A DNA stretch of 24,000 bases from Paracoccaceae bacterium (lineage in GTDB: Bacteria > Pseudomonadota > Alphaproteobacteria > Rhodobacterales > Rhodobacteraceae). The translations under genes were made by a program, and so were the position numbers. This document shows positions 1,043 to 21,133 of this stretch, piece after piece. The stretch spans positions 1 to 24,000 of the forward strand of contig JBHJIZ010000069.1 of assembly GCA_050043005.1 (NCBI GenBank), given 5' to 3'. Below the pieces are notes generated by a model. That model was given only the letters and a program-made list of their open reading frames with translations, did no database searches and was not told the origin of the DNA. The first letter of the stretch is position 1; every line of letters starts with the position of its first letter.

Positions 1043-1104
1043 TTATTTCTCCTCAAAATTTTTCTCATTTTACCACAATCCTTATCCGCAACATAATCTG
1101 CTTT

Positions 1105-1596: not shown

Positions 1597-1730
1597 TGAA
1601 ACCTCCTGCTCGGTTGCAGATGTGAAGAAGATAAACGCAGCGTCGCGAATCCCATCTATGGGCACAGAACGTAGAGAATGATACTTTTCGGCTGTCGCAG
1701 CGAGAGCGAATCGTAACCATCTAAAATCAT

Positions 1731-3002
1731 TCACAATAATTTTCGTTTGGGCTCTATGCTTACTGGGAAATCTTCGCCGATGCGATAAGATACAGGTCGC
1801 TCAGGATCAGAGAGATTTTCAAGAGCAAACTTCGCGACTCTGCGCTTGAATTCGTCATGATGAGATGCCCATCTAATATCTTCGGGAACGATAAATGCTT
1901 TGAGGCGCCGATTAGCGCGATCATTCGTTTGCCGGACAGCAACTCTAGCGACGCCAGGCGCTGTCCGGAGAACCTGCTCAACATAATTTGTAAAGACGTT
2001 CACACCGCCGATCTGTATTGCACTATCTTTACGACCCAGAACCTGAAAACTATCTTCACTAATACTTTTAATCTGATCCGGTGGCTCAATTACTCGACGA
2101 GTCAGCTGAGTAACCGGGATTGTATCACCAGACCGCTCGACCGGTCGCACATGCGGCAAGAATTCGAAGGGAGCGTCGGGCGCATCACGCAACCCGACCC
2201 CGAGCGTTTCGGTGGAGCCATACACCTCGACGAGGCGTCCAAGCCCACTTTGCTGCACTTGAGGCCAAAGCTCAGACGGCGCAGGCGCCGTAGAAGTCAC
2301 ACCGGTACACCCAGCCGGGATTGATGCCCCCGACTTCAGATGCAAACCCCAAGTGAAAGGGGTGCCGATGATCAAATCTCCTGCGTGGCCTTCACGTGCC
2401 AGCGCGCCCGGAGACTTTGAGGCAAGATCAAGCACCAGCCAATCATTGACAAGCGGCGACAAGACGGTGAACAGAAATCCATAGATGTGATGTGCTGGCA
2501 CCTGCGCAACCGCGCGCGAAACCTCCCCGAAGATTTGAGGATGAGTTGACACTTCCTCGACCAGGTCTTCTACGCTGTGCACTATCTGCTTTGGCACACC
2601 GGTAGAACCTGAGGTTTCGAAGACGATTTGCTCGGGCTCGGCATCTGGAAGCTGGCGGAACCCGTTCGCAATGATCTCGCACCACTCTCCAAGTTGGCGA
2701 TGAATTAACAAGTAATCCTCGACCCCGGTACGGTGTAGCAAAAATATTCGATTGATCGCGGCGACGAGTTCGAGCAGCGCAAGGCTGTCGACACCCATTT
2801 CATCGTCGTTGACGGCAGTCTTACTCGTCCAACTGTTAGTCTCGGCTACCGGAACGGCCTGTCCGCGAATCCGCCCGAGTTCGCGCGCCAGTAAAGCAGT
2901 AACTGGGCGGAAAAGGGCATTCTCGCGTCCCTTCAGAAGCATTCCTAGTCTCGGTTGCAACGGCGTGGGCACTTCATCACCCAATAGACGGGTCTCAATC
3001 AT
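1731..3002 (-). CDS. pcl: p-coumarate ligase-like adenylate-forming enzyme (ANL superfamily) with a carrier-protein-like N-terminal region
   Basis: 423 aa. ANL core motifs are present: ETSGSTGVPK (A3), EVYGSTETLG (A5), GRKDSAIQIGGVNV (A8). The short N-terminal part carries MGVDSLALLELV. The gene sits in a pyp/tal context, as for Rhodobacter pCL. RBS GAGG lies 5 nt before the ATG. Confidence 0.8.
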   Translation of the reverse strand: MIETRLLGDEVPTPLQPRLGMLLKGRENALFRPVTALLARELGRIRGQAVPVAETNSWTSKTAVNDDEMGVDSLALLELVAAINRIFLLHRTGVEDYLLIHRQLGEWCEIIANGFRQLPDAEPEQIVFETSGSTGVPKQIVHSVEDLVEEVSTHPQIFGEVSRAVAQVPAHHIYGFLFTVLSPLVNDWLVLDLASKSPGALAREGHAGDLIIGTPFTWGLHLKSGASIPAGCTGVTSTAPAPSELWPQVQQSGLGRLVEVYGSTETLGVGLRDAPDAPFEFLPHVRPVERSGDTIPVTQLTRRVIEPPDQIKSISEDSFQVLGRKDSAIQIGGVNVFTNYVEQVLRTAPGVARVAVRQTNDRANRRLKAFIVPEDIRWASHHDEFKRRVAKFALENLSDPERPVSYRIGEDFPVSIEPKRKLL

Positions 3003-3037
3003 AGCGCCTCAATGCTTCACGATTGGATCGAAAGAAG

Positions 3038-3060
3038 CCGGCGCGTACGCAGCGCGCCGG
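3038..3060 (-). terminator. GC-rich hairpin between the unknown paralogue and pcl (possible intrinsic terminator or attenuator)
   Basis: ccggcgcg (3038-3045) pairs with cgcgccgg (3053-3060) around a 7-nt loop. On the minus strand the hairpin is followed by CTTCTTTCGA. Confidence 0.4.
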
Positions 3061-3082
3061 GTTAGCTGTACGTCCTGAATGA

Positions 3083-3565
3083 TCAGTGGACATCAACTTC
3101 GTGAAGGATCTCGCCCAGAAGACCTGCGTACTGGTCACGCGCCGCCTTCGCTCTGGCCATTAGCGAATATCCCAAAGCCGCCAGTTCGACCGCGCTGAGG
3201 GAAGCGTCGTCTGCAAAGCTGTCGACCCGCATATCCGCTGCCGCATCATAGCTCTCGAGAGTCTCCATGACCTCGTCGAAAGAAGCGAACTCCCACGCTT
3301 TCGCGCGATCACGAGCATTCTCGTCGGCGAAGAAGATTTTCACTGCGGCTACAAAGGTCTGATTAGCTGTCCGATAGATGTTAATTTCGAACCAATACGG
3401 GGCGCCAGGGATGAAGTTCATGGCCATGCAGAGCTCGGTTCCGTCAAAGATCAACGGTCGTTGCCCAGTGCGCATGATTTTGTACTGCATTGGCGGCATG
3501 GTCATCGGAATGGAGTCATTCTCCATCGTGGTGTCCTGCATTTCAAATGGAGACATCTGATTCAT
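3083..3565 (-). CDS. Unknown protein, paralogue P1 of a three-member family in this window
   Basis: The ORF track entry is 3083-3610. I prefer the ATG at 3565 (MNQMSPF...), which has GGGAAG 7 nt upstream and lies just after the P2 stop. It shares three colinear sequence blocks with P2 (3582-4202) and P3 (10642-11082). No known domain recognised. Confidence 0.6.
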   Translation of the reverse strand: MNQMSPFEMQDTTMENDSIPMTMPPMQYKIMRTGQRPLIFDGTELCMAMNFIPGAPYWFEINIYRTANQTFVAAVKIFFADENARDRAKAWEFASFDEVMETLESYDAAADMRVDSFADDASLSAVELAALGYSLMARAKAARDQYAGLLGEILHEVDVH

Positions 3566-3581
3566 GTGAGAACTTCCCGTA

Positions 3582-4202
3582 TCATGAGTGAAGATGGATG
3601 GGCCCAGCACCCAGCGCAGCAGTCAGGAGCCGGCTGAAGTCCAAGCGCAGAGATGCTAGCATCTCGTTGTGTGAGCTAGCAGAAGAGACGGTGTCGAAGG
3701 CCAGCCATGACCAACCTTCAGCGGGTTCGTAGCGTGCAATAAACTGATCAAGATCAGCTGCCGACGATAGGGCTGCTACTTTGTGCAACGGACACGCGGT
3801 GACGCCGTCGGGTACGAGCATTGCTATCCTCGCATAAACCTTACCAGCCGAGGTAAGATAGATCGAGAATTCCTGACGAATTGGCACGGATCCGCTGCTC
3901 ACCAAGGTGTCGATCGATCGATCCACCAACAGTATTCCCTCGAACACTATTGGCCGTTTGCCGTCGCAGCGTAGCCGATAACGAGTATAGGCACCTGACA
4001 ACAGGTTGGTTCCATCATCGACCACGTCTGCCTGAGCAGACAGAAGCATTACCTCATCTGAATTCGGCGTAGCTGGCACAAACGGAATGCGGGAGAGCGC
4101 GTGGGCAACAGGAGCACCCGATGGGTGCCCCCCCCGCCGTGCCCGGAACAAAACGCGCAGATCGTCGTGGATGAACACGCTGCTAGACTGTTGTCCGGTC
4201 AT
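3582..4202 (-). CDS. Unknown protein, paralogue P2, immediately downstream of pyp
   Basis: 206-aa ORF, 44 nt after the pyp stop. The core YRLRCDGKRPIVFEG ... EFSIYLTSAGKVYARIAML ... HKVAALSSAADLDQFI parallels P1 (YKIMRTGQRPLIFDG ... FEINIYRTANQTFVAAVKI ...). Confidence 0.6.
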   Translation of the reverse strand: MTGQQSSSVFIHDDLRVLFRARRGGHPSGAPVAHALSRIPFVPATPNSDEVMLLSAQADVVDDGTNLLSGAYTRYRLRCDGKRPIVFEGILLVDRSIDTLVSSGSVPIRQEFSIYLTSAGKVYARIAMLVPDGVTACPLHKVAALSSAADLDQFIARYEPAEGWSWLAFDTVSSASSHNEMLASLRLDFSRLLTAALGAGPIHLHS

Positions 4203-4246
4203 TTCTCTGAACCCACCCGAAAGTGTTGATCGTCAGGTCACTTAAT

Positions 4247-4618
4247 TCAAGTGCGCTTGACGAATATCCAACAGTTGCCATCATTTGATGCTTTTAAGTG
4301 GATTCTTACTTTGACATTGGCACCCTTGTAAGCAAACTGATAGTCAAACAGCGTGTTGACCTGGCCCGTCTTCGCGAACTTGATGAACTCGCTATGGAAC
4401 CGTTTGCCCTTCGCGCAGGGCGCGATGTCGTTGAAGAAGTTCTTGCCCATCACGCTGGAAGGATCTCGACCAGCAATAAGACCTTCAGCCTTGTTGTACT
4501 TCAGGATTTTGCCGGTGCGATCGACCATGACGGCACCGAAGGGAAGATATTCTGCGCGTCGCGGCTCGGCCTGCAGAATATTGTCGATATCGTTCGTACC
4601 AAAAGGAATGACGTCCAT
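4247..4618 (-). CDS. pyp: Photoactive yellow protein (PAS-fold p-coumaric acid photoreceptor)
   Basis: 123 aa, collinear from memory with Halorhodospira and Rhodobacter PYPs: IPFGTNDIDNIL, PFGAV, YNKAEGLIAGRDP (equivalents of Tyr42, Glu46, Arg52), GKNFFNDIAPC (chromophore Cys codon at 4415-4417) and a WIFVKR C-terminus. RBS GAGGA lies 9 nt upstream. Confidence 0.95.
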   Translation of the reverse strand: MDVIPFGTNDIDNILQAEPRRAEYLPFGAVMVDRTGKILKYNKAEGLIAGRDPSSVMGKNFFNDIAPCAKGKRFHSEFIKFAKTGQVNTLFDYQFAYKGANVKVRIHLKASNDGNCWIFVKRT

Positions 4619-4641
4619 TTACCCAGTCCTCTACTTCGGAA

Positions 4642-5079
4642 TTAGTCGTTTGGAGCGCGATCGTAAGCGCCGTCCACGTTCTGTTGGAATGTATCGTTAC
4701 GGGTCGCCGATTGATCTATCAGGCGCTCCATACTGTTTCGGCTCGCAGGGTTATCGTCTGAGACCTCGCGACCCTCGGGCGCGATCCAGCGATAGTCCAT
4801 ATCGCCCATTGACACCACGCATTGCGGCATTCGCTCAAACCGCGATTGATGTTCGTCCTTCAGAATGTCGAGGTCGATTTCATCGGCCTCACCCATCTCC
4901 ATCAGGGCTTCAATCTCACTGATCTGACCTTCCATGTCAGCTTGATTGGCCTGAGTGATAATTTCTGTTGCCGCTTCGAGCACCCATTCAGCATGGGCGC
5001 CGCGAACGACCAGATTCAGCTCGTCAAAGCTGAATTCATACCGTCCATTCGCCTTCTTCAGGCGACCGATATCATCCAT
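4642..5079 (-). CDS. Acidic unknown protein (145 aa), first gene of the pyp operon
   Basis: The ORF track entry is 4642-5163. The ATG at 5079 (MDDIGRLKK...) has AGGAG 7 nt upstream, and the 28 codons before it look non-coding. The stop lies 23 nt before the pyp start. No domain recognised. Confidence 0.55.
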   Translation of the reverse strand: MDDIGRLKKANGRYEFSFDELNLVVRGAHAEWVLEAATEIITQANQADMEGQISEIEALMEMGEADEIDLDILKDEHQSRFERMPQCVVSMGDMDYRWIAPEGREVSDDNPASRNSMERLIDQSATRNDTFQQNVDGAYDRAPND

Positions 5080-5321
5080 TGCGCATCTCCTGTTGCCTAT
5101 GGGTCCTACCGAATCCGGAGCGCGAACCCACGCAAAGGGCTTTTGGCATATGCCCCTTAACAAACCTTCGCTGCAGTCATTCCAAACCAGTATTGAATTC
5201 TTAGACTTTGCTTAAATCTCCAAAAAAACTGTGCTCTCAGACGTCAGTTGATGTGCTGTTAACCAAGGCACCCGCAAACGTGGGTTTGAAACGAACTGAG
5301 CGGAGTGCGGGAGACCACTGA

Positions 5322-6905
5322 ATGCTCGAAAACACCGCGGGCTTTGCCGATCCAGGATCCGCTTCCAAGATCGTCGAGATCACCGGAACCCTATCGATTT
5401 CAGATTCCATAGCGGTTGCGGAAGGTCGTGCGGTACCGGTTCTTAGCTCTGACGCGTCCGAACGTATCGTGGCCGCGCACGGGAGGTTGCGAACCTGCGT
5501 GCGTCAGGCCCGTCTGGTTTATGGGGTTACGACGGGTTTCGGACCATTGGCGAACCGCCAGGTCGGCACGCACGACATTCAACTTCTGCAACGCAACCTA
5601 ATCTACCATCTAGCAACTGGGGTCGGAGACGTCGCGGACTGGGTGACGGCCAGGATGATCGTCGTAGCCCGGCTATCCTCTATCGCGCAGGGCGTATCAG
5701 GCGCTTCTCCCGAACTGGTCGCACGATTGCTTGGCTTGCTCGGCAGCCCGTACGCCCCGAGAATCCCGATGAAAGGCACTGTGGGAGCCAGCGGAGATCT
5801 CACGCCGTTGGCGCACATGGCCTTGGCGCTCCTCGGTGAAGGCAACTTTATTGACCGCGACGGAAGCGAGGTTTCGTCAGAGAAGGTTCTCGGGACCATT
5901 GGCGGGCCGTTCTCTCTGGAAAGTCGCGACGGTCTGGCATTGGTTAACGGCACGTCGGTCATGACGGCATTGGCCGTGTTGGACGTACGCAGAGCTGAGC
6001 GGTTGATCGAGATGGCCGAACGCTTGACCGTGGGTATGGCAGAGATCCTGAACGGTCGAGCCGAGGCTTGGCATGACGCATTCGCGCGACATCGCCCCCA
6101 TCCGGGACAAGTCGAGACAGCCAAAAGGTTGCGCTTGTTTGCGAAGGGGTCGGCCATGTTGGTCGAGGCATTGGCGGCAGAAACGCTGTTAAACCCGGCT
6201 TTGGCAGCGCAAGTGGTCGAGCGCCCCTTACAGGACGCGTACACGTTGCGGTGTGCGCCACAAGTGATCGGCGCCGCGCGGGACATGCTGGCAACTCATT
6301 TGGAAACAACCCAGCGCGAGTTGAATAGCGCGACGGACAATCCACTGTTCCCAGAGGATGCTCCGGCATTGCACGGTGGGAACTTCATGGGGCAGCATAT
6401 CGGCTTTGCGTCGGACCTGCTGTCAAATGCGACTCTAACCCTTGCCGCCTTCGCGGAGCGGCAAATCGCACGTCTGACGGACGAGCGTCTGAATGAGGGT
6501 CTGCCCGCATTCCTGCATCAGGGAAGCTGCGGCTTGAACAGCGGTTTGATGGGCGCACAGGTCACAGCGACCGCCATTCTGGCCGAAATGCGCTCTCGTT
6601 CTGTTCCTGCATCAATGTTGTCGATCTCCACCAACGGGGCCAATCAGGATCATGTCTCGATGGGGACGATTGCCGCGCGCAACGCTCGAGACCACCTCAA
6701 GGATTTCTCAATGGTGCTGTCGATACTGGGTCTTGCCGTGGCGCAGGGTATCGATTGTCGGGGACAGTCGAACAGGTTCGCTTCGGCTACGCTGGACCTG
6801 TACCGCTTCGTCAGAGATCATAGCGAGACGCTGACTGAAGACCGCCCTCTCTCGCCTGACATTCTGAGGCTGGCCGATGCGATACTCAACACCGATCCAT
6901 TCTGA
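5322..6905 (+). CDS. tal: Tyrosine ammonia-lyase (HAL/PAL/TAL family, MIO cofactor)
   Basis: 527 aa with GVTTGFG, the MIO-forming GASGDL (Ala-Ser-Gly at 5787-5795), LVNGT and NQDHVSMG. The substrate-selectivity position reads YHL (His codon 5607-5609), which is the His-Leu switch described for Rhodobacter TAL. The gene is divergent from the pyp operon. Confidence 0.9.
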   Translation: MLENTAGFADPGSASKIVEITGTLSISDSIAVAEGRAVPVLSSDASERIVAAHGRLRTCVRQARLVYGVTTGFGPLANRQVGTHDIQLLQRNLIYHLATGVGDVADWVTARMIVVARLSSIAQGVSGASPELVARLLGLLGSPYAPRIPMKGTVGASGDLTPLAHMALALLGEGNFIDRDGSEVSSEKVLGTIGGPFSLESRDGLALVNGTSVMTALAVLDVRRAERLIEMAERLTVGMAEILNGRAEAWHDAFARHRPHPGQVETAKRLRLFAKGSAMLVEALAAETLLNPALAAQVVERPLQDAYTLRCAPQVIGAARDMLATHLETTQRELNSATDNPLFPEDAPALHGGNFMGQHIGFASDLLSNATLTLAAFAERQIARLTDERLNEGLPAFLHQGSCGLNSGLMGAQVTATAILAEMRSRSVPASMLSISTNGANQDHVSMGTIAARNARDHLKDFSMVLSILGLAVAQGIDCRGQSNRFASATLDLYRFVRDHSETLTEDRPLSPDILRLADAILNTDPF

Positions 6906-6994
6906 TTCATTGAAGATCATCACGTAGATAAGGAACGCCGCCAATAACTCTTTCTTAAGAAACTGGCTCGAACTCCTGATATGCGTTATCGTAC

Positions 6995-7013
6995 CTCCCG
7001 TGAGAAACGGGAG
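6995..7013 (+). terminator. Small hairpin downstream of tal (weak terminator candidate)
   Basis: ctcccgt (6995-7001) pairs with acgggag (7007-7013) around a 5-nt loop, followed by TATCTTAAAT. The stem is short and the U-tract poor. Confidence 0.25.
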
Positions 7014-7215
7014 TATCTTAAATGGACACAGTGCAGGGTTGTGGGGCAGTACGTTTAATCGTCGAAAATGATGGCAAGATTGAGCTTTCGTATCATTTTG
7101 GAACGCTGAATGAGGCGATGGAAATATTCGACTTCATTCGTGATTTCTTTCCCAATGCTAGATACGTCATCGAACCAGCGCTTCACTAAAGCCACAGCAT
7201 AGAACCGCCGGGTCC

Positions 7216-9516
7216 TCAGACTGCCGTGCGTGGTTCTTCGGACTCTGAAGGCATCGTGAAGTCCTCTGCGGTTTCGGAACTTGATTGTGCTTCGGCTTCC
7301 CATTGCGCCAGCATCGCTTCGATATCGTCATCTGCTGGCGTCTCTGTGTCGTTCGAGTCCGGATCGTTTGAGGACAAGTCACCTTCCAAGCCGCCGGGAT
7401 CCTGTTCGCCAAAGCTGTCGTCGGCAGGAGGCGACTCAGGATCTTCGACCGCCCATTCGGTAGAAAACTGGTGCGCGTCATTCTCCTTGGACGGAACTTC
7501 ACCGTGTGTCGTGATGTCTTCGATCGCGGATGCGTCGACAGTGAAGTGCGCCATCGATGCACTCATTTCCTGAGTGAGGACGGACATTTGTTCTACGCCC
7601 TTCGACAAACGTTCACCGCCTTGAGACAGTTCTGCAACCACGCTCTGCAGCTCAAACAGTGAAGAGTTCGTATCTTCAGTCTGTGCGGATTGCGCAGCAA
7701 TACTATACGAAATCTGCTGAATCAGGCTGGCAGATTCGGTGATCATCTGAACCATCCGATCAAGCTGAGCACTCGCCGATTGAGCCTGGTTCGCCGTCTT
7801 GGCCGAGAGTTGCTCTATCTCTGCTGCGGCGAACATCGAGCGATCGGCAAGCTTGCGGACTTCCTGAGCGACAACCGCAAAGCCACGACCATGCTCGCCC
7901 GCTCTCGCCGCCTCGATCGAGGCATTCAAGGCCAGAAGGTCAGTTTGGCGAGATATCTCCTGCACGACTGTAACTCTTTGAAGAATCTCCTGGATCGCGC
8001 TCACGGCGTCCTTGACGATTTTCCCACATTCCTGAGCTTGGCTTGCAGCTTCGCTGGCACGCGACTCCGTCGTTGCGGCCTGATCCGCGCTAGCGTTCAG
8101 TTCCTCGCTGATCGTGTTCAGTGACGCGACGGCGGTATCCATCGCGGCGGCTTGAGAACGCATCGAACTGAAGAAGGTCTGAGAGAATGCGCCCAGGTTG
8201 CCGGAAAGATCCGTCAATTGCTCCAGCGTGACACGACCATCGCCAACGACCCGTTGCAGCGTCCTGGTCATGTCCTCGAATGACTGTCCGAGCGCATCCC
8301 TCTCCGAAACAGTTTCGATACTGATCCGCAAATCGCCAGCGGCGACTTGTCCGGCCAGCCGGGACATGGCTACGAACGACAGCCTGAGAAACCCGACTGT
8401 GTCAAGGATACGGCCAAACTCGTCTTTCCGGTCGGACCCGCACACAGGTATGTCCGTGCCGCCCTGCAAACATAGGTCCAATGCCTCGGTGGTGGCTTTC
8501 ATACCCGAAGCAAACCGACGCATCGCCAGAATGGCAAGAAGCAGAACCAGCAAGATTGAGAGCGCGGCAATCGTCGCACCAACCGAAGCGCTGAAGTCAG
8601 CACTGCTAACCATAGCGTCGACCCGGGCCCGCGTAGCAGCGCGGTGTTCTATGATTGCAGTGTGAAACGCATCAATCGGTTGAGCTGTATCCGCAAACCA
8701 TTCGGCAACTGTGACCGACCTTCCCGGATCGCGCGCCGATAAGTCGGTGATCGCTTGGGACATCCCACCTAGCCAGTCGGCTCGAAGATCTCTGAGCGCA
8801 ATTGCGTCGGCTGAATGAACACGGTCCCGGCGGATGGTATCAAGTTCGTCCATCGTGAACCGAACGTTGTCACGTACACTCTCAAAGAGTTGAGATGCGA
8901 TCCGTACTGATACGCCTGATTTGTCTTCCGATGCGTTTTGTACCACCAATCCACCGACAGTCCGGAGCTGCCCAATTTGATCCTTGGCACGTTCCAAGAG
9001 CGCCAAGCCCATCAAATCGCGTCCCAGTTCCGACCCACTTGCGAAGTGTTGCGCTGCCGCTATCTGGCCGATCAAACCGTGAATGATCGATGTGTACTCA
9101 CTGCGAACGTAGATGCCGTCTGCGGGCGTTCCATCCAACGCGCCACGTAGCTTCGAGAGCCGCGAAACAATGGTCTTGATTGCCTCCGCGTGTTTCGTTG
9201 CTTCGCCCTCTTCAACGGGACCTTTTGCAAGGAGTTCGTTGATGGCGACGTCAACCGCACCGCGTTGCGAACGCAGCTCCTGCCTGCTGGGCCGGTCATC
9301 AGTGGAGATCAAAACCAGGTGCGCGAGGCTTCGTTCCTTCTGTAGTTCATGTATCAGGCTGGAAGCATTGGCATTGATCTGGAGCGCTTCACTCAGTTTG
9401 CCCAGAACTGCGCGATCCGCCATCGAGTTCGACGTGACGTAAGCCGCCAAGGCCAACATCATCAAGAATGGCACAATGATCGCGGCCCCGATCAGCGCTT
9501 TTAATGACCTATGCAT
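7216..9516 (-). CDS. Methyl-accepting chemotaxis protein with a NIT-like periplasmic sensor, HAMP domain and acidic C-terminal tail
   Basis: I prefer the start at 9516 (MHRSLKAL; RBS GAGGGGAG) over the track start at 9543. There are two TM segments. The sensor region contains [12 protein letters not shown]..., typical of nitrate/nitrite-sensing (NIT) domains; this call is tentative. The canonical MCP hairpin tip [38 protein letters not shown] is present. The last ~110 aa are Asp/Glu/Ser-rich. Confidence 0.9.
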
Positions 9517-9610
9517 GATTGCGCTCCCCTCACAGTGGCGCATCTCATAGAACAGATCTTCTTAAAAAGGGCTAACGAACCAGTCTATTTCAGGCACTTA
9601 TCTAAAATTA

Positions 9611-9638
9611 TTGAAGTTTCTATAGTGTTTTATATTTA
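9611..9638 (+). promoter_or_regulatory. Candidate sigma70-type promoter for the gas vesicle operon
   Basis: TTGAAG (9611-9616), 16 nt spacer, TATTTA (9633-9638), inside the AT-rich 224-nt divergent intergenic region about 130 nt upstream of the 9768 start. Pattern match only. Confidence 0.3.
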
Positions 9639-9767
9639 ACGAGACCTTGATGGGATACTTGAATGGGTAGCTCTGATGCGTCGCCTCAATAATTTATCCA
9701 AAAATCCTCGCAACAGCGTAACCGGAAATTTAACCAAGTATTCAAGTACAACAGGCTACGGAGCGAT

Positions 9768-10613
9768 ATGCTCCTGTCAATAGCTCTAGCCATAACGATC
9801 GCAGCTGGCATAGCGCTCGGCGTTCAGTTTCGACGGCGTTTGGTTGCCGTCTGTGTAAGACTTGAACGTCTCGAGGCGAACGGAGAGCACGACGCCACCA
9901 CACGGGCAGAAGACAGAGAGACGCAAACCCTTCGCGTTGAAGAGATTCTCTCTTCTCTTGCGACGCGTATTCGCACCGCCGAGCAAGGTTGGACGGAGCG
10001 GATCGAAGTTCTTGAGAACACAATCTCTGCGCGCCTGATCAATATGGATGCCATCCGTGAGGACTCCGAAGATCGCCGCGATCAGACCCTAATCGACAGC
10101 CGGTTGCAGGAATTTGAAAGGCGGATCACCGAAATCGCGCAACAGTTGGATGCGCTCTCGATCCAGATAAATAACGTCCCACGAAGCGGAGTCTTTGAAG
10201 ACCTGGAACAGAAATTGAACGAGGTCTCAGCCCGGTTTGATGGTGCCGAAGCAAGTTTGACGCAATATCGATCGATTGAAGATCATATCGCCACGTTGCA
10301 ATCCAAAATCTCGGAAATCGAGACAACGGCTGCCTCCCATGCATCAGCGCAAGCTGATCTGAGGACTGATGTGCAGCGGGAGAAGTCCAGTCTCAGCTCC
10401 CGAGTAGATGCCTTTGAAAGAGAGCTCCGACAATTCGCGGAGCGACTGCAAGGACAAACCGAAACCAGCGGTTTGGCATCTCAGCCAGCGACCGCGCCGC
10501 ACAAATCGACTGAAAAAGCAGGACGTATCGGCGACGTGTCTGACACGCGCGCCGCCAGCTTGGACAACACGATCGCATTGCCGGATCGCGTCGTCACAAT
10601 CCTAAACTCATGA
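9768..10613 (+). CDS. Membrane-anchored coiled-coil protein, first gene of the gvp operon
   Basis: 281 aa, RBS GGAG 5 nt upstream. The N-terminal hydrophobic segment LLSIALAITIAAGIALGV is followed by long heptad-like helical sequence rich in E/R/Q/L. No known family recognised. Confidence 0.6.
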   Translation: MLLSIALAITIAAGIALGVQFRRRLVAVCVRLERLEANGEHDATTRAEDRETQTLRVEEILSSLATRIRTAEQGWTERIEVLENTISARLINMDAIREDSEDRRDQTLIDSRLQEFERRITEIAQQLDALSIQINNVPRSGVFEDLEQKLNEVSARFDGAEASLTQYRSIEDHIATLQSKISEIETTAASHASAQADLRTDVQREKSSLSSRVDAFERELRQFAERLQGQTETSGLASQPATAPHKSTEKAGRIGDVSDTRAASLDNTIALPDRVVTILNS

Positions 10614-10641
10614 CCGATGCGCCAACCTTCGGAGGAAACAA

Positions 10642-11082
10642 ATGACTGAAATCAATCGCGATAAGATGACTGGGACGGACTGCAGCATCGTCGCTATTGG
10701 TAGGACGGGAACGGCTCCGCTACGCTTCAAAGGCATGCGGCAAGTCGCACGCCGTTACGAGACTGATTTTTTGCAAGCCAACTTAGCGCTATGGCGTTGT
10801 GCGACGGGCGGCTACGTTGCTCATCTCGAGCTGATGGAGGCCGGTCAGAGGCAAAGCCACGCGCACCGCGTTGGAACTGTTTCCGAAGCGTTATCCTTCT
10901 TCGCATCCCTGCGCTCGAGCATGCCGGATGTGCCTGAACCGCAGCCGGGAAAGAAAAAACGTCAGTCGATTGATGCGGTTGCGAAGGTTCTCCTGAAGCG
11001 ATCGCGAACCCTGAGCGCGCGGGACGCCTTGGAACAATTGATCGAAGATTTCTCGGACACCCTCATTGTAGGGGCGCTTTGA
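10642..11082 (+). CDS. Unknown protein, paralogue P3 of the P1/P2 family
   Basis: 146 aa, RBS GGAGG 6 nt upstream. The blocks GTAPLRFKG ... ANLALWRCATGGYVAHLEL ... HRVGTVSEALSFF are collinear with P1 and P2. Confidence 0.6.
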   Translation: MTEINRDKMTGTDCSIVAIGRTGTAPLRFKGMRQVARRYETDFLQANLALWRCATGGYVAHLELMEAGQRQSHAHRVGTVSEALSFFASLRSSMPDVPEPQPGKKKRQSIDAVAKVLLKRSRTLSARDALEQLIEDFSDTLIVGAL

Positions 11083-11187: not shown

Positions 11188-12219
11188 ATGCCGAGAAAAG
11201 CGCATGCACCTGCCCGATCCAAGCCCGCTGCCTCGGCAAAGGGTGGCGTGGAAACGCCCGCTGCGGAAACTTCCACCGCAGAGAGAACGCCGCCAAGCCT
11301 GGCTGACGATGGACTCGACCTTTACGAAGATAGCGAAATCTCGTCGCTGCGCAGCCGGGCACATCTTTACTTGAGCCTCGGCATACCAGTGCACTTTCGC
11401 GGCCGTGCCGGGATGGGCAAAACAACACTCGCCCAAAGGGTCGCTCAAGAAGCTGGCCGCCCGGTCTCGATGATAACCGGCGATCACGCGCTCGTAGCGG
11501 CTGACTTGGTCGGCCGCGAGATCGGCTATGATTCTCAGCGGGTGCGCGATCGCTACGTACACTCTGTCAGCCGGTCAGAAGAGAAAGTCCGTGCCGTTTG
11601 GGCCGACGGCGTACTGACCAAGGCGATGCTGGAGGTCCATACGCTCATTTATGATGAGTTCACCCGCACGCCACCCGAGACAAACAACGTATTGCTTTCA
11701 GCACTTGAAGAACGGGTGCTCTATCTGAACCGCCCGTTGCGCGAGAGCGCGCAAGTGCGGGCGCATCCCTCGTTCAAGGTGATCTTCACCTCTAATCCGG
11801 ATGAGTATTCTGGCGTCAAAGCGGCTCCCGATGCACTTTTCGACCGCATGGTTTCGGTCGATGTCTCGCTCTGCAGCCCGGAGACTGAGGCGGGCATTGT
11901 TGCTTTCCGGACCGGCATTGGTCAGCCGGAGGCGACGGGGATCGTGACCCTGCTTCGCGCGATCCGGGACAAGCTTCCGGCGGCCAACCCACCCTCGATC
12001 CGTACCGCGATCATGATCGGCAAGATCGTCCGGACACTGGGCATGGCAACCAGCGCAAGTGATGAGCGGTTTGTTCAAGTCTGTTTGGATGTGTTGGAGT
12101 CGCGTTGTCCGAGCGACACAAACCGCGCCGAACGGGATCGTTATCTTGACGGATTGCGAAAAGAAATCCTGCGAACCGGTAGCAAACCCCGGACCGCAAA
12201 ACAGGAGGCGGCTGCGTGA
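11188..12219 (+). CDS. gvpN: Gas vesicle protein GvpN (MoxR/CbbQ-like AAA+ ATPase)
   Basis: Walker A GRAGMGKTT and Walker B LIYDEFTR are present, along with NVLLSALEE and FKVIFTSNP..Y.G...A.DAL.DR, as in GvpN. I prefer the ATG at 11188 (GAGGA 6 nt upstream) over the TTG at 11158 in the track. There is an Ala/Pro/Lys-rich N-terminal extension of ~60 aa. Confidence 0.9.
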   Translation: MPRKAHAPARSKPAASAKGGVETPAAETSTAERTPPSLADDGLDLYEDSEISSLRSRAHLYLSLGIPVHFRGRAGMGKTTLAQRVAQEAGRPVSMITGDHALVAADLVGREIGYDSQRVRDRYVHSVSRSEEKVRAVWADGVLTKAMLEVHTLIYDEFTRTPPETNNVLLSALEERVLYLNRPLRESAQVRAHPSFKVIFTSNPDEYSGVKAAPDALFDRMVSVDVSLCSPETEAGIVAFRTGIGQPEATGIVTLLRAIRDKLPAANPPSIRTAIMIGKIVRTLGMATSASDERFVQVCLDVLESRCPSDTNRAERDRYLDGLRKEILRTGSKPRTAKQEAAA

Positions 12220-12461
12220 AGCAACCAGTCCACCGATTACCGCGCCGAAGCCCTGTGCGCCCGCGCTCAACCGCCCGTTCCGGTGTGGAGATCGCTAAGG
12301 AACTCGTCCGCGCGGAGTTCGAAAAGCAGCGCCTTCGGCGTGAGCTTGATCGGCTCGAGCGCCGGGTCGCGCAAAGCCAGGCTGAATACATCGCGAACTC
12401 TGAGCGTGCCGTGCACTGTTGCGCCAAAATTCTAGACGATGAAACCAGGGAGTGGTCATGA
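12216..12461 (+). CDS. Small basic coiled-coil protein (81 aa), unknown
   Basis: The GTG start has an excellent RBS (AGGAGG 7 nt upstream) and overlaps the gvpN stop (GTGA). Its own stop overlaps the gvpO ATG (ATGA). An Arg-rich N-terminus is followed by EFEKQRLRRELDRLERRVAQSQAEY. Confidence 0.55.
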   Translation: MKQPVHRLPRRSPVRPRSTARSGVEIAKELVRAEFEKQRLRRELDRLERRVAQSQAEYIANSERAVHCCAKILDDETREWS

Positions 12462-14684: not shown

Positions 14685-16784
14685 ATGCCGGTTGCCGCTG
14701 AGTACCCGTCGCTCAAAGTCCAGGCGGTCGACGCACCCGATGCCCATCACAATCTTGCTCGCATGACGTCAGGGGCGCTGCGCCGTATGGGGCTACGTGC
14801 TGGGTCGACCATTGCCGTTCACGGTGATCGAGTAAGCTATGCCCGGGTACTTCCCGGTCGCTCGGGCGCGCTGACCGAGACCGACATTGCCTTACCAGAG
14901 CTGGTGATCAGCAACTGCGGGGCAGGCATAGGACAGTCGATCCGGATTGAGCCGGTCGAGTTGCCGATCTTAGACAGCGTCAACATCGAAGTCGAAGATG
15001 GTCGCCCATTCCGCCACAATGAGTCGAAGTCCGGCTTGCTTGACCAACCGATCCGGATCGGCGATCGCGCGCTGCTCGTTCTGCCGACCAAAGAAGTTCG
15101 CTCCATCCGAATTCGCGATTGCGCTCCGGTCGAGGCGGGCTTGATCGGCCATCAGACCGATGTCGAGATCCTGGAAACCAAGCAGCCGCGAGCTTATCCG
15201 ACGGTCGGAGGGCTTTCGGCACAGATTGCGCGTGTTCGCGAGATGGTGGAGTTGCCGATCCGTCAGCCTGAGCTGTTCGCGCACCTCGGGATCGTCCCTC
15301 CGCGTGGCATCCTGTTCACCGGCCCGCCCGGCAGTGGCAAAACCCTGCTCGCCCGTGCTGTGGCTGAGCAAACCGACGCGCACTTCTACCACATCAACGC
15401 GCCCGAGATCGTCTCGAAGCATTATGGCGACTCAGAGAAGAAACTGCGCGACGTTTTCCAGGAAGCCGAGCGCAATGCGCCATCAGTGATCTTTATCGAC
15501 GAAATCGATGCAATTGCTCCCAAACGCGACAGCGTCTCTGGTGAAAAGCAGCTTGAGAAACGTGTGGTTGCGCAACTCCTGACGCTGATGGATGGACTGT
15601 CGGACCGTGGACAGGTTGTCCTGATGGCGGCGACGAACCTGCCGCACATGCTTGATCCCGCCCTGCGTCGACCTGGTCGCTTCGACCGCGAGGTGCCGTT
15701 CACCGCCCCGGATCGCGAAGCCCGTCAGGAAATTCTCTCGGTTCATACTGCAATGATGCCGCTGGCGGACGGCCTGGATCTGGCATCTGTCGCCGCCAAG
15801 ACCGATGGATTTGTCGGTGCGGATCTCGCCGCTGTAGCGCGGGAAGCTGCGATGGCGACGCTCCGGCGTTCGGGCGCCTTGGAGAGGTCAGTGGATGTTA
15901 CCCGACTTCAGGTCACACCCAATGATTTTACCGCCGCGCTCGCTGCCACGGGGCCGAGTGCGCTGCGCGAGACGCAGGTTCAAACGCCCGAAACCGCCTG
16001 GGCAGACGTTGGTGGCTTGGATGATACCAAGCAGATGCTCACCGAGGCCATCCTTTGGCCACTCAATCAACCACAACTTGCGCAGCAGCTCGGTCTTTCA
16101 CCAGTCTCGGGAGTGCTTCTGCATGGACCACCCGGTAGCGGCAAGACGCTCCTGGCGCGTGCACTGGCGTCAGAGAGCGGGCTGAACTTCATTCCAGTGC
16201 GCGGCGCACGGATTTTATCTCAGTATCTCGGCGAAGCCGAACGGATGATTGCCGAACTGTTTGCCCGGGCGCGCCATGCAGCGCCCTGCCTTATGTTCTT
16301 CGACGAGATCGACTCTCTGGCACCCAGCCGGGTAGCAGGGGACACGAACATCGCGCGCGTCGTTGCGCAATTGCTGATCGAGATTGATGGCATAGAAGGG
16401 CGAGGCGGGACGATCTTACTTGGTGCCACCAACCGGATTGAAGCAATCGATCCAGCCTTGTTGAGACCCGGCCGTTTCGATCTGACCGTCGAGATTGTGC
16501 ATCCCGACGCAACGGCCCGGACCAAGATTTTGGACGTTCACTGCCGCGGTAAGCCGCTGGCGGATGATGTGGACTTAAGTGCGTTGGCCGATGCATCCGA
16601 GGGTTGGAGTGGGGCCGAACTCGCCGCTCTTTGCCAGGGTGCCGCACGGCAGGCACTTCGGCGCACACTGCTTGCCGAGGTAGATGCTACCACGCCGAAC
16701 ATTACCTGTGCGGACTTCGATCGAGCCTTCGCGGAGCGGGTCGAAAGTGATGCGATCAGAAAGGGACCCAATCAATGCCTGTAG
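14685..16784 (+). CDS. CDC48/VCP/VAT-like ATPase with an N-domain and two AAA+ modules
   Basis: 699 aa. The N-terminal part looks like a CDC48_N barrel. D1 has GPPGSGKTLLARAVA and VIFIDEIDA, with pore loop SKHYGDSE. D2 has GPPGSGKTLLARALA and LMFFDEIDS, with pore loop SQYLGEAE. PALLRPGRFD-type second-region-of-homology motifs occur in both modules. Confidence 0.9.
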   Translation: MPVAAEYPSLKVQAVDAPDAHHNLARMTSGALRRMGLRAGSTIAVHGDRVSYARVLPGRSGALTETDIALPELVISNCGAGIGQSIRIEPVELPILDSVNIEVEDGRPFRHNESKSGLLDQPIRIGDRALLVLPTKEVRSIRIRDCAPVEAGLIGHQTDVEILETKQPRAYPTVGGLSAQIARVREMVELPIRQPELFAHLGIVPPRGILFTGPPGSGKTLLARAVAEQTDAHFYHINAPEIVSKHYGDSEKKLRDVFQEAERNAPSVIFIDEIDAIAPKRDSVSGEKQLEKRVVAQLLTLMDGLSDRGQVVLMAATNLPHMLDPALRRPGRFDREVPFTAPDREARQEILSVHTAMMPLADGLDLASVAAKTDGFVGADLAAVAREAAMATLRRSGALERSVDVTRLQVTPNDFTAALAATGPSALRETQVQTPETAWADVGGLDDTKQMLTEAILWPLNQPQLAQQLGLSPVSGVLLHGPPGSGKTLLARALASESGLNFIPVRGARILSQYLGEAERMIAELFARARHAAPCLMFFDEIDSLAPSRVAGDTNIARVVAQLLIEIDGIEGRGGTILLGATNRIEAIDPALLRPGRFDLTVEIVHPDATARTKILDVHCRGKPLADDVDLSALADASEGWSGAELAALCQGAARQALRRTLLAEVDATTPNITCADFDRAFAERVESDAIRKGPNQCL

Positions 16785-17776
16785 AGCTGATCGCGATCCT
16801 CGATCCTGAAAGCGCTGAAAATGTGCTTGAAGCGATACCCGATCCTTCCGCTCGGCTGATCACCACCGCAGGGTTAAGCGTGTGCGTGATTGAACCGCAG
16901 CGCCCACCGGGCGTGCTGGCGCGCTTGCTCGCAAATGCAAAAACCCTCACCGCGCCCATGATCGCAAGACAACAACTTTTCGAGCATCTTCTGCGATGCG
17001 GTGACGTGTTGCCGGTAAAGCCAGGAACGGTTCTGTCGGACCGTGACGTTCACACTTTCTTACGCACGAACGCAGAACTCCTGCGCGAAACGCATTGTAC
17101 GTTCACTGGACATGTTCAGTATCAGCTGAGCGTTCGGTGGAACCCGGCCCAGGCGTTGCAAAATTTTCGAGATGCACCAGAACTAGAAGGCTGTCATTCG
17201 GCTCAGGCAATTGCCGCAGCAGCGGAAGCGCTGCGTTCGCGCCTTGGACATTCGTTCGGAGAGGAACTCGACTCTGCGATCTCAAACCGGATTGCATTGC
17301 CAATCGACGGGATCGACACCGTTCTCAACACCGTATTGCTGGTTCATCGGGACGACACCAACAAGCTCGATCAGGCTCTCGAAAGGATCGATGCCATCTG
17401 GACCGAAGGATTGCAGCTCAAGCTGACTGGCCCCTTGCCGCCCATGAGTTTCGCGCTGGTTACACTGCGAAACATCAGTCCATCGGATCGGGATGAGGCG
17501 CGGGCGCTGCTCGGTGGCGTTGATGGTACTGACGCGGCTTCGATCGACCGAGCCTTTCGCGCTCGTGTGAAGCAGTCGCATGCGGATCTTGGTGGTGACG
17601 GCGACGACTTGAGCCCGCTTGTTGCAGCGCGCAATCTGCTTAAGCGGCTGCTCGAGGTCGACGCGGCGCTCGGCAGTTCAGTACCTAAAACTGCGATGCT
17701 TGCGGAGATTCGGTCAGACGACAAAGCCCAGCCCAAGCAGCCAGTTCCAGAACCTTCGATCGAGGCGGTCAGTTGA
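16775..17776 (+). CDS. GvpF/GvpL family protein (copy 2) with a C-terminal J-domain-like extension
   Basis: Residues 1-230 follow the GvpF/L layout (LFEHLLRCGDVLPVKPGTVL, VQYQLSVRW, NTVLLVHRDD, LTGPLPPMSF). Residues ~236-295 read EARALLGGVDGTDAASIDRAFRARVKQSHADLGGDGDDLSPLVAARNLL. The ATG overlaps the AAA gene end by 10 nt. Confidence 0.8.
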   Translation: MPVELIAILDPESAENVLEAIPDPSARLITTAGLSVCVIEPQRPPGVLARLLANAKTLTAPMIARQQLFEHLLRCGDVLPVKPGTVLSDRDVHTFLRTNAELLRETHCTFTGHVQYQLSVRWNPAQALQNFRDAPELEGCHSAQAIAAAAEALRSRLGHSFGEELDSAISNRIALPIDGIDTVLNTVLLVHRDDTNKLDQALERIDAIWTEGLQLKLTGPLPPMSFALVTLRNISPSDRDEARALLGGVDGTDAASIDRAFRARVKQSHADLGGDGDDLSPLVAARNLLKRLLEVDAALGSSVPKTAMLAEIRSDDKAQPKQPVPEPSIEAVS

Positions 17777-18495
17777 GCTGGATGCTGAATGGAATTGCCT
17801 GGGCCGAACCAGGCCGCCCAGACGGGGCCCCAGAACACAACCGGATCGTGAAAGATCGGCTGTGTGCCTTGGTGACCCAAGCCCATGGCCTTGGCGACCT
17901 CCTAGCGTCACGGATCCTAGACCAGTCAGTTGAGCAGGAGCTGCGGTCTTATGATGGTTTGTTGCAAAGCTACGCAGACGAACAAGACATAATGCCGATG
18001 CGGTTTGGCACGTGCGTTGCCACGCTTGACGATGTCCAAGATCTGCTCGGACGGCACGAGGTCACCTCCACTAACTGGCTGCGGTCGTTCGCGGGTCGGC
18101 GGGAGTTTGCGGTGCGCGTGCAACGCGAAACCGATCCGTCACTTCAGGTCGAGCCGCATGCAGATGGAGGACGAAATTACCTCGCGCGGCAGTTAGCATC
18201 GCGCAAGGCGGTCGAGCAGTCGCGCGAACAAACACAACAGTTTCTGTTCCGCACGCAAATGACCCTGGAAAGCTATGGTGTGCTTCAGAAACTCGCGAAG
18301 GTCCCCTCGGCCGAACACCGGATCGCGGGATGGGCATGTCTGATCAGCAGAGTGCGCATTGAGGCCCTGTGCCAGGCAGTTGAAACTCTGAACAGCGACG
18401 CCCAGGCGCTTGGCCTTTCTGTGACTGTTTCGGGTCCGCACGCGCCGTTTGCTTTCGCCGCGTTAGAGATTGGCTGTAAGGATCCGATCCAGTGA
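17773..18495 (+). CDS. GvpF/GvpL family protein (copy 3)
   Basis: DGLLQSYADEQDIMPMRFGTCVATLDDV, GRREFAVRV, NYLARQLA, WACLISR and VSGPHAPFAF are present. The TTG start overlaps the previous stop (TTGA); an alternative ATG lies at 17782. Confidence 0.8.
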   Translation: MSWMLNGIAWAEPGRPDGAPEHNRIVKDRLCALVTQAHGLGDLLASRILDQSVEQELRSYDGLLQSYADEQDIMPMRFGTCVATLDDVQDLLGRHEVTSTNWLRSFAGRREFAVRVQRETDPSLQVEPHADGGRNYLARQLASRKAVEQSREQTQQFLFRTQMTLESYGVLQKLAKVPSAEHRIAGWACLISRVRIEALCQAVETLNSDAQALGLSVTVSGPHAPFAFAALEIGCKDPIQ

Positions 18496-19666: not shown

Positions 19667-21133
19667 ATGAACGAACTTGTTAGCAAGCTCTGCCGTGCCG
19701 AGCTGATCACGCATTTGCTTGAGATCGACGAAGAGACCGCGTCCGAGAAAGAAGCCGCAGCATGCGTACTGAACGTTCTCGATGCACAGGTCTTTCGAAT
19801 TGCTCCGTACCTTTACGGCGTTAACTTGTCTTCGATGACAGATGCCACTGACGCGGAGAGGGTCGAGAACATCTCGGAGGCCTTAACTGCACGCCTGGGG
19901 CCGGGTTCGGTCGGCGTCACAACACTCATACTGGATCCTCAACAGGACGATGCCGCCACCGGTGAGGTCGAGGAAAACACGCTGCTATTGATGCAGGCCG
20001 TCGCAACCGCAGCCGACCAGGTCACGTCAGAGGACGGCCCCGAAAGGGGCGCAATACTCAGCGCCGAATTCGCTGTTCGTGCAGCGGAGCTGACCGCCCG
20101 TGGATTGGCGGAACTCGCCGTTTCGGCACCGCCTGCTGGCGAGGAAATCGCACCTGCTCTTGAAGCAACGACGAACGCATTGCACGCGCTCGAGTTGCGT
20201 CTCGACCATTTGGAGTTGCGGTTCGGTGAAATTTCCGAGGCCAGTAGGGAAAAGATGCAGGACTGGGCGGATTCGAGTTTGCGCAAACCGCTACGAGATG
20301 TTGAAAGTCAGCTCGCTGGCATCCGTTCTGTTCAATCCGAGACCATCGATGACTGGGGTGCTCGGATCGGCACACGGCTCGATACTCTTGAGCAGGGGCA
20401 GATCCCGGCCGAGTGGTTTCTTGGCCAGATAATGTCGCGGATCGGAGATCTTGACGAGCAACTCTCAGGCAACGAGCAAGAGCAGCGTCAAACAGCATTG
20501 GAATGGGCTCGCCGCCTCGATAGTCGGATCTCGGCTGTGGCGGATCAACTCATACCACCCGAGTGGTTCCTGGGCCGCGTCATGGCTCGTATAGGTGAAT
20601 TGGACCAGCAGCTTTCCAGTTCTCAGCGCGATGCGGAAACAGCAGCGATCGACTGGGCTGAACGTTTGGACGACCGCGTCACGACGATCTCCGGCAGTCT
20701 TGCCCCGCCCGAATGGCTGGTGGGACGCATAATTGAAAGGATCGACGCTCTCGAGGTTCAACTTTCGCCTGCCGAGAGAGAACCGCACGCGGATCGGGAC
20801 GCGCTGATGTCTGACTTCTCCCACAAGCTCGAGCCGTTGGCGTCTACAATCGATGAGATGAATGGGCGCCTTGCTGCCCTTGTGACTCGAGAACCAGCCA
20901 CCGAAGGCAAAATCGATACACCACAGATTGCCGAGTTGGCTTTGAGTCATGAGCGCTTGAACAAGTCATTCAGCAAACTGAAGACCGAGGTATCAACACT
21001 CGCGAAAAGACATACTCAATCTGCCAACGAAACCAGTAAATCTCTGGATTTGATCCGCTGCGGATTGGCCGAAATTTTAGCTCAGATTCAAATAAAAAAT
21101 GATAATAATCATAGTATAGAGCAATATACTTGA
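19667..21133 (+). CDS. 488-aa helical protein with three exact-period 50-aa tandem repeats; unknown family
   Basis: RBS GGAG 7 nt upstream. The repeats start at W230, W280 and W330: DWGARIGTRLDTLEQGQIPAEWFLGQIMSRIGDLDEQLS / EWARRLDSRISAVADQLIPPEWFLGRVMARIGELDQQLS / DWAERLDDRVTTISGSLAPPEWLVGRIIERIDALEVQLS. Degenerate half-units flank them. This is the last gene before gvpA. Confidence 0.7.
   Translation: MNELVSKLCRAELITHLLEIDEETASEKEAAACVLNVLDAQVFRIAPYLYGVNLSSMTDATDAERVENISEALTARLGPGSVGVTTLILDPQQDDAATGEVEENTLLLMQAVATAADQVTSEDGPERGAILSAEFAVRAAELTARGLAELAVSAPPAGEEIAPALEATTNALHALELRLDHLELRFGEISEASREKMQDWADSSLRKPLRDVESQLAGIRSVQSETIDDWGARIGTRLDTLEQGQIPAEWFLGQIMSRIGDLDEQLSGNEQEQRQTALEWARRLDSRISAVADQLIPPEWFLGRVMARIGELDQQLSSSQRDAETAAIDWAERLDDRVTTISGSLAPPEWLVGRIIERIDALEVQLSPAEREPHADRDALMSDFSHKLEPLASTIDEMNGRLAALVTREPATEGKIDTPQIAELALSHERLNKSFSKLKTEVSTLAKRHTQSANETSKSLDLIRCGLAEILAQIQIKNDNNHSIEQYT
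20354..20803 (+). repeat. Three tandem 150-bp coding repeats (diverged at the DNA level, conserved at the protein level)
   Basis: Codons 230-379 of the 19667-21133 ORF. The unit length is exactly 50 codons, judged from the conserved Trp positions and the PPEW(F/L)(L/V)GR motif. Confidence 0.8.

Follow-up and report, generated by a model that had tools for sequence, protein, structure and literature searches.

The 24,000-nucleotide (nt) stretch analyzed here, hereafter the window, comprises positions 1 to 24,000 of contig JBHJIZ010000069.1 of a Paracoccaceae bacterium (assembly GCA_050043005.1) and carries both a photoactive yellow protein (PYP) photoreceptor module, sensitive to blue/UV light, and a gas-vesicle (gvp) gene cluster. 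At the entry to the latter lies an open reading frame (ORF; 10642-11082, plus strand) for a basic protein of 146 amino acids (aa) with an isoelectric point (pI) of 9.6, which we term P3 and which is delineated by the ORF listing, family-level tests and an AlphaFold model (pLDDT 82). The sequence GGAGGA (10629-10634, plus strand) furnishes it with a Shine-Dalgarno element 7 nt before its ATG. After a gap of 105 nt it is followed by gvpN (11188-12219, plus strand), the first recognized gas-vesicle gene, which codes for an AAA+ ATPase (AAA_5, E=6.5e-17) and whose start was set by the gene of 343 aa called in L001, a relative that is 94% identical. The plus strand shows no terminator-like hairpin between P3 and gvpN, and the two are probably co-transcribed. 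The photoreceptor module occupies the minus strand, where pyp (4247-4618; PAS fold, E=2.6e-8) is succeeded by the genes for P2 (3582-4202), a 206-aa protein with an additional N-terminal region ahead of a family domain at residues ~70-200, and P1 (3083-3565), an acidic protein of 160 aa (pI 4.4), the true start of which is the ATG at 3565 rather than the GTG at 3610, as judged from 14 homologues that begin at that methionine. The original prediction had held that P3 is a third member of a family otherwise represented by P1 and P2, that it lies directly upstream of gvpN and that a single family consequently spans the photoreceptor and gas-vesicle modules; the evidence laid out below bears out each of these points.

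Individual sequences provide limited information on this relationship. Pairwise BLASTP aligned P3 with P1 at E=0.023 over a mere 13 residues and with P2 at E=57, as against E=3e-4 for P1 with P2, and these values being too weak, homology was decided by family-level tests. A word-indexed protein search returned 14 homologues for P1, four for P2 and one for P3, and shallow early profiles were merely suggestive, with P3 ranked third at E=0.14 and hhalign E-values of 0.006-0.14. The non-significant BLASTP matches and these first profiles are what might be expected if P3 were unrelated to P1 and P2 and merely resembled them by chance in three short blocks. However, profiles of greater depth speak against such an explanation. 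The P3 set was deepened by two routes, namely positional homologues from related loci and a phmmer search through the full set of 1.84 billion representative proteins, which recovered 12 true P3 relatives and no other credible match. A hidden Markov model (HMM) built from P1 and P2 only (39 non-redundant sequences) retrieved the P3 of the window at E=3.9e-7 (24 bits) among its 268 stop-to-stop ORFs, with the runner-up at E=0.21, and when applied to 3733 ORFs from the window and 19 loci it ranked every P3 ahead of any unrelated ORF. Reciprocally, an HMM of the P3 family (13 sequences) retrieved the P1 of the window at E=2.2e-6 and P1s elsewhere at values down to 1e-12, so that retrieval in both directions falls at ~1e-6 to 1e-13 with no false positive ranked higher.

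Profile-profile comparisons with hhalign concur. The P3 family matched the P1 family with a probability of 93.6% (E=2.1e-7) over 125 columns, which is essentially full length, P1 matched P2 with a probability of 89% (E=2.1e-6), and P3 aligned with P2 in that register as well (E=1.6e-3, 114 columns). The corresponding scores of 48.5, 44.7 and 27.4 exceed the maxima of 30.3, 27.4 and 20.8 obtained from 100 column and 100 block shuffles, and also lie above those for reversed templates, whereas the family of a PBP-like protein from the same operon, used as a negative control, gave E=0.67 against P1, 0.38 against P2 and 0.47 against P3. These HMM, hhalign and control tests, along with the shared order of secondary-structure elements in the models described below, rule out chance resemblance, to which we accord virtually no credence. 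In a neighbor-joining tree, P1 and P3 come out as sister clades to the exclusion of P2, and the P3 branches are much longer; bootstrap support is 74% for the monophyly of P3 and only 40% for that of P1. P3 is a genuine paralogue of P1 that looks like an expressed gene, and, more distantly, of P2, and the three together constitute an undescribed family of small proteins.

The relationship extends across the whole domain. In an alignment of 62 sequences, four elements fall in one register: the three blocks on which the original prediction was based, which do occur in P3 in the same order as in P1 and P2, and a C-terminal helix as a fourth. The first block (residues 17-31, VAIGRTGTAPLRFKG; 10690-10734, plus strand), seen in the alignments as an R-x-G-x-x-P-L-x-F-x-G hairpin, encompasses the sequence GTAPLRFKG (residues 23-31) and is the most conserved motif of all three subfamilies. 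Through it P3 fits the family hairpin pattern h-h-h-R-x-G-x-x-P-[LV]-x-[FV]-x-G; R21, P26, L27, R28 and G31 are invariant across the P3 family, and the R, G, P and L are common to P1 and P2 too. Further invariant residues of the P3 family are L50, W51 and G57. The second block (residues 46-64, ANLALWRCATGGYVAHLEL; 10777-10833, plus strand), aligned to EINIYRT..FVAAVKI of P1, is a beta-hairpin according to the hhalign register, the alignment and the third and fourth strands of the structural model, and the third block (residues 75-87, HRVGTVSEALSFF; 10864-10902, plus strand) covers the last strand and the first helix of that model. The long C-terminal helix (residues 110-145; 10969-11076, plus strand), delimited by the model, the alignment and an hhalign match to the P1 helix AARDQYAGLLGEIL, carries an ARxx[FY]xxL[IV](G)E-like motif common to P1 and P2. 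Beyond the first hairpin, the patterns shared by the family can be written as E-h-x-h-[YWF]...G-x-h-V-h-x-h for the second hairpin, A-x-x-h-x-S-h-x-x-h-x-x-h-h-E for the strand-helix unit and A-R-x-x-[FY]-x-x-L-[IV]-G-E for the helix.

AlphaFold2 models of P3 (pLDDT 82.4, pTM 0.72) and P1 (pLDDT 80.4, pTM 0.70), compared by the order of their elements, predict one and the same layout: five antiparallel strands, a helix of ~10 residues, a less ordered linker and a C-terminal helix of ~35 residues. In P3 the strands lie at residues 15-21, 24-40, 44-53, 58-66 and 69-77 and the helices at 80-91 and 110-145, and in P1 the strands lie at 26-30, 38-50, 57-66, 71-79 and 87-93 and the helices at 96-105 and 125-159. 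The predicted folds of the two proteins are hence in agreement as regards the order of secondary structure. Neither of the two outcomes that would have overturned the original prediction, a P1/P2 HMM that misses P3 or folds that differ, was thus observed.

Searches of established family collections and of the PDB yielded no relative of these proteins. Neither Pfam nor NCBIfam recognized P1, P2, P3 or the PBP-like protein, be it from single sequences or from each family member in turn (E<=10). For P3 in particular, no family in either collection, including all the Gvp families held there, was found at E<=1, and the models for GvpA/J/M, GvpO, GvpG, GvpK, GvpL/F and GvpN did not recover it; its neighboring genes do match their respective Gvp models. 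A sequence search of the chains in the PDB found no relative, and tblastn of P1 and P3 against 72,556 plasmids returned no match.

Related loci, retrieved by means of P1, P3 and their relatives, come from several metagenome-assembled genomes and from one cultured organism, Rubrimonas cliftonensis DSM 15345; Pikeienuella, Limibaculum and Paracoccaceae are named among the relatives, and all named sources are Rhodobacterales of the Paracoccaceae type. In more than 12 of these loci the genes form one contiguous and co-directional pyp-gvp supercluster, in which a divergent TAL gene is followed by those for the PBP-like protein, pyp, P2, P1, pcl, a variable coiled-coil protein, P3, gvpN, an ORF of ~80 aa, gvpO and gvpJ onward. 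The family is always inside this supercluster in the window and in all the retrieved loci and contigs. P3 comes after pcl and immediately 5' of gvpN wherever gvpN is on the contig, the exception being a single ORF in locus L014, and four further members of its family, checked separately, also lie 5' of gvpN; a fifth contig, which carries P3 after pcl and the gene for a 222-aa protein, stops before gvpN. The exceptional ORF (L014, 16819-17358) is a divergent P3-like sequence far downstream in the gvp cluster, which matches the P3 HMM at E=4.5e-11 and has a near-neutral pI. The original prediction had regarded the family as the only obvious sequence-level link between the two modules. This proved wrong, as the pyp and gvp genes are themselves contiguous in those loci, with P3 at their junction.

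In the window this arrangement has been altered. The block made up of the genes for the MCP (7216-9543, minus strand), TAL (tyrosine/aromatic ammonia-lyase; 5322-6905, plus strand, divergent from the pyp operon, with a Lyase_aromatic Pfam match on its orthologues), the PBP-like protein, pyp, P2, P1 and pcl (1731-3002, minus strand), the last coding for a p-coumaroyl-CoA ligase-type AMP-binding enzyme (phmmer; AMP-binding Pfam matches on orthologues), occupies 924-9543 and is inverted with respect to L005 3977-11126. A single inversion of the MCP-to-pcl block explains the layout of the window. Because transposase remnants abut pcl at the left breakpoint, namely an rve_3 remnant of an insertion sequence (1105-1467, plus strand) and a DUF4096 remnant that is an IS4/5 fragment (1462-1734, minus strand), both recognized by family matches, we suggest that an inversion mediated by an insertion sequence uncoupled the pyp genes from the gvp genes. 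With the relatives co-directional and the window inverted, the ancestral state of the two modules is a single cluster, in which P3 lies at the seam of the photoreceptor and gas-vesicle genes. In relatives pcl precedes the coiled-coil protein, P3 and gvpN. The coiled-coil protein of the window (281 aa; 9768-10613, plus strand), directly upstream of P3, combines an N-terminal hydrophobic or membrane segment with a long coiled coil and has only weak coiled-coil-type Pfam matches; the same slot holds poorly conserved counterparts of 178-357 aa in some loci and none in others.

The paralogues are consistently set apart by their charge. P1 is strongly acidic in each of its 23 sequences, with a pI of 4.3-5.0 and a net charge between -8 and -16. 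P3, the linker of which is rich in arginine and lysine, has a basic pI (8.6-11.9) in 12 of its 13 members and has thus switched its charge, whereas that of P2 varies. The P1s from clusters devoid of P3 score highest with the P3 HMM (42-46 bits versus 16-34 elsewhere) and are still acidic. In relatives the P2 and P1 genes overlap by 4 nt, and in Rubrimonas cliftonensis DSM 15345, which has no P3 and in which pcl is followed by gvpN, they form a single ORF of 366 aa (L015, 9389-10489) with a proline-rich linker and no stop between the two parts. Given these overlapping or abutting genes, and their fusion in one genome, we infer that P2 and P1 act as a pair.

As for known folds, the weak Foldseek matches of the models are sheet-plus-helix modules, several of them dimeric or nucleic-acid-binding. 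Both models matched Pur-alpha of Borrelia with a probability of 0.5-0.9 and a TM-score to the target of 0.42-0.55, and over the Pur-alpha repeats of Borrelia and Drosophila together the probability reached 0.94, all at E>=0.08, which is below significance. The WGR domains of PARP1 and PARP3 were matched by the P1 and P3 models with a probability of 0.6-0.8 at E=0.086-0.36 and TM-scores of 0.25-0.27, values too weak for an assignment. Like the beta(4)-alpha modules of the Pur-alpha/Whirly type and WGR, the P-family models have an antiparallel sheet followed by a helix; unlike Pur-alpha and WGR, they have five strands and an extra long C-terminal helix, and the match is not significant. The Pfam models for PurA and WGR, too, gave no match at E<=10 to 13 P3 or 15 P1 members. 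A PUR domain arises only when two repeats come together, either from the same chain or from different ones, a requirement paralleled by the separate or fused arrangement of P2 and P1. The top Foldseek match of P1 was a levivirus coat protein (6yfi_B; E=0.013, probability 0.77, 120 columns), which in the MS2/PRR1-type likewise has a meander sheet with two helices C-terminal to it and, as a dimer, binds an RNA hairpin on the face of the sheet. However, the TM-score is 0.23-0.28, the protein is not among the top matches of P3 and it has no sequence similarity to the family; hence, we treat the likeness as an analogy of shape only. Other weak matches of P3 were to a homologue of p32 (MAM33-type) and to the substrate-binding domains of DnaK/Hsp70.

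The neighborhood is of a kind seen before. According to PMC3646047 (citing Kyndt 2004), pyp lies next to gas-vesicle genes in Rhodobacter capsulatus SB1003 and Loktanella sp. SE-62, and earlier literature has suggested that PYP may act in buoyancy. Those organisms share with the window the placement of pyp and the chromophore genes beside a gvp cluster of the same type (gvpN, gvpO, gvpA/J etc.). The P1/P2/P3 family is not described in the PYP literature examined, and the locus search with the P1 alignment as query returned neither R. capsulatus nor C. sphaeroides. Surveys of PYP neighborhoods from 2022 and 2025 name pCL, TAL, GGDEF/EAL, kinases and MCPs, and mention neither gas vesicles nor the P family. 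PYP itself is ~90% identical between loci (the window, L002, L005 and L008) whose other proteins are 30-70% identical, indicating unusually strong constraint.

The only experimentally shown partner of PYP is the PBP of R. capsulatus (RCAP_rcc01067), a protein of 142 aa with a pI of 3.9 and with helices followed by strands, which is encoded adjacent to pyp and binds the UV-induced or light-activated state of the PYP of that organism. Its counterpart in the window is probably the PBP-like acidic protein (144 aa, pI 4.25; 4642-5076, minus strand), as judged by length, pI and position; all the related loci keep this protein directly ahead of pyp, and it is this protein, and neither P1 nor P2, that fits the description of PBP. 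The ORF of 173 aa listed for it (4642-5163, with a TTG start) is probably overlong. We considered PBP as a fourth member of the P family and rejected it (hhalign E=0.38-0.67); it is not homologous to P1, P2 or P3 and has the opposite order of elements, with helices first and strands after. The pairing of a basic PYP with an acidic PBP in R. capsulatus is nevertheless mirrored by the charge contrast between basic P3 and acidic P1.

Small or regulatory genes embedded in gvp clusters have precedents. Known gvp regulators and accessories include GvpD and GvpE of haloarchaea, GvrA-C of Serratia and GvpR of Bacillus megaterium, which is encoded upstream of gvpN; P3 resembles all of these in being embedded in a gvp cluster and GvpR in occupying the slot just upstream of gvpN, a likeness of position. 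In C. sphaeroides the expression of gvpN depends on CtrA. The CtrA box TTAA-N7-TTAA has four one-mismatch matches at 5201-5262 and 9636-9744 of the window, in the gaps between the pyp operon and TAL and between the MCP and coiled-coil genes, respectively. Over the whole window five such boxes were found against 1.8 expected, a number reached by four of 100 shuffles, and the equivalent gaps of relatives hold one-mismatch boxes in just two of 12. Being barely above chance and largely absent from relatives, the boxes are probably an effect of AT-rich spacers, and we dropped CtrA control of the window as a candidate.

The rest of the gvp cluster, downstream of gvpN, includes gvpO, gvpJ/A-type genes, Hsp20, copies of gvpF/L, gvpG, a CDC48-type AAA gene, gvpK and gvpA. 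An ORF of 81 aa (12216-12461, plus strand) between gvpN and gvpO overlaps both and has no family match; its position is kept in most relatives (79-82 aa), and it looks like another unnamed member of such gvp clusters. The CDC48-type protein, a double-AAA ATPase of 699 aa (14685-16784, plus strand) encoded between gvpG and a gvpF/L gene, is present in L005 and L006 (705 aa) and missing at the same position in L002 and L008, pointing to a variable addition; judging by a 731-aa ORF (15779-17974) after an 84-aa ORF, it apparently also occurs in L015. Between gvpK and gvpA lies the gene for a 488-aa protein (19667-21133, plus strand) with three tandem 50-residue repeats, in which the motif P-[AP]-E-W-[FL]-[LV]-G-[QR]-[IV]-[MI]-x-R-I recurs at residues 247, 297 and 347. 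Pfam has no significant match for this protein, which may be an analogue of GvpC, built of repeats and located on the outside of the gas vesicle. Downstream of gvpA, a 221-aa protein (21686-22351, plus strand) has a long N-terminal part rich in lysine, serine, threonine and alanine, which is probably disordered, and a C-terminus that weakly matches a helix-hairpin-helix model (IMS_HHH_1, E=4.7e-4) without reaching the cutoff of Pfam.

Taking synteny, charge and fold shape together, we tentatively propose, with rather less than even confidence, that P3 is the gas-vesicle-side partner or modulator of P1/P2 in PYP-based signaling from light to buoyancy. Here, the members of the P family would act as dimers, with P2-P1 as one pair, and P3 would be the basic and fast-evolving member on the gas-vesicle side, acting on the expression of gas-vesicle genes or on gas-vesicle assembly. 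Its sheet and basic linker might serve to bind an acidic partner or nucleic acid, with GvpN as a further candidate contact, and acidic P1, or P1 and P2, could engage or titrate it via the shared fold and the C-terminal helix. Light would set the availability of P1/P2 through PYP and its binding protein, so that PYP would control gas-vesicle formation, and P3 would thereby form an optional output or gain-setting branch of the pathway. A bolder version, which we consider decidedly unlikely, would have the P family be a new class of signal relay that completes the PYP pathway: light-activated PYP and its binding protein would change the acidic P2-P1 pair, which would capture or release basic P3, and P3, as a nucleic-acid-binding regulator with a novel sheet platform, co-transcribed with gvpN, would in this way switch gas-vesicle production and buoyancy.

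Several observations weigh against the proposal that P3 serves as a partner of P1/P2. P3 is absent from five of ~15 distinct clusters (L014-L018), where pcl abuts gvpN and the pathway evidently does not need P3; this excludes any relay that depends on P3, one form of the relay that the original prediction had allowed for. It is also the least conserved protein of the cluster, being 29-39% identical to its counterparts in three relatives, as against 57-65% for P1, 57-73% for GvpN and ~90% for PYP in the same loci, and this could equally fit a peripheral accessory role. The C-terminal motif of the P3 of the window (ARDALEQLIED, without the terminal tryptophan) is less canonical than that of most relatives, Pfam and NCBIfam detect no nucleic-acid-binding domain in the family, and Foldseek against the PDB produced no significant match for P1 or P3 (best E=0.013-0.04; TM-score 0.2-0.5). 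Moreover, the mechanism is pieced together from gene order, charge and the shape of a predicted fold.

Some of the same observations would suit a P3 that is a non-regulatory accessory of gas-vesicle assembly, such as an adaptor or substrate-presenting partner of GvpN, with P1 and P2 as similar factors merely traveling with pyp. P3 has the usual traits of accessory gvp genes, which tend to be small, to evolve fast and to vary in their presence; it adjoins gvpN with no terminator between, and no DNA-binding domain was found in it with Pfam or NCBIfam. However, every locus has P1 and P2 between pyp and pcl, outside the gvp genes; P1, with a mean column identity of 71% in its homologue alignment, is more highly conserved than a peripheral accessory would be; no known Gvp family matches P3; and gvpN occurs without P3 in one third of the clusters. 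On balance, we place this explanation on the unlikely side. We likewise consider it unlikely that P3 acts autonomously as a nucleic-acid-binding gvp regulator, with a homodimeric sheet platform like that of Pur-alpha, Whirly, WGR or the levivirus coat protein, and has no functional contact with P1/P2, so that their paralogy would reflect common descent only. The basic charge of P3 (up to pI 11.9 in the family), its arginine- and lysine-rich linker, the weak resemblance of the P1 and P3 models to Pur-alpha and WGR modules and the monophyly of the P3 clade, with long branches away from P1, are all in keeping with this. Set against them are the sub-significant standing of every fold match, the want of a PurA or WGR match in Pfam, the failure to identify a conserved operator-like motif and the shortness of the P3-gvpN spacer, down to 18 nt in relatives, which means that there is no conserved promoter there on which P3 could act. 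Finally, the rank of P3 as the fastest-evolving gene of the cluster and its loss from several clusters might be read as the decay or neutral drift of a P1 duplicate with no function of its own. This we regard as highly improbable: all 13 lineages retain an intact ORF (145-170 aa) with invariant family motifs and a fixed position 5' of gvpN, the basic shift is consistent across lineages, and in the window P3 retains a good ribosome-binding site.

In terms of its wider implications, this is a new protein family within an already known kind of gene neighborhood, and the P-family HMMs can be used to annotate its genes. Should the family turn out to be an assembly accessory only, it would still provide new parts for the gas-vesicle toolkit used in the engineering of acoustic reporters. 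PYP is among the most studied photoreceptors, yet PBP is the one partner reported for it so far. That pyp-gvp clusters carry a conserved three-member family, two of its genes belonging to the pyp operon and the third opening the way into the gvp cluster, offers in P1, P2 and P3 a short list of candidates and pairings for the connection between light and buoyancy in these bacteria.

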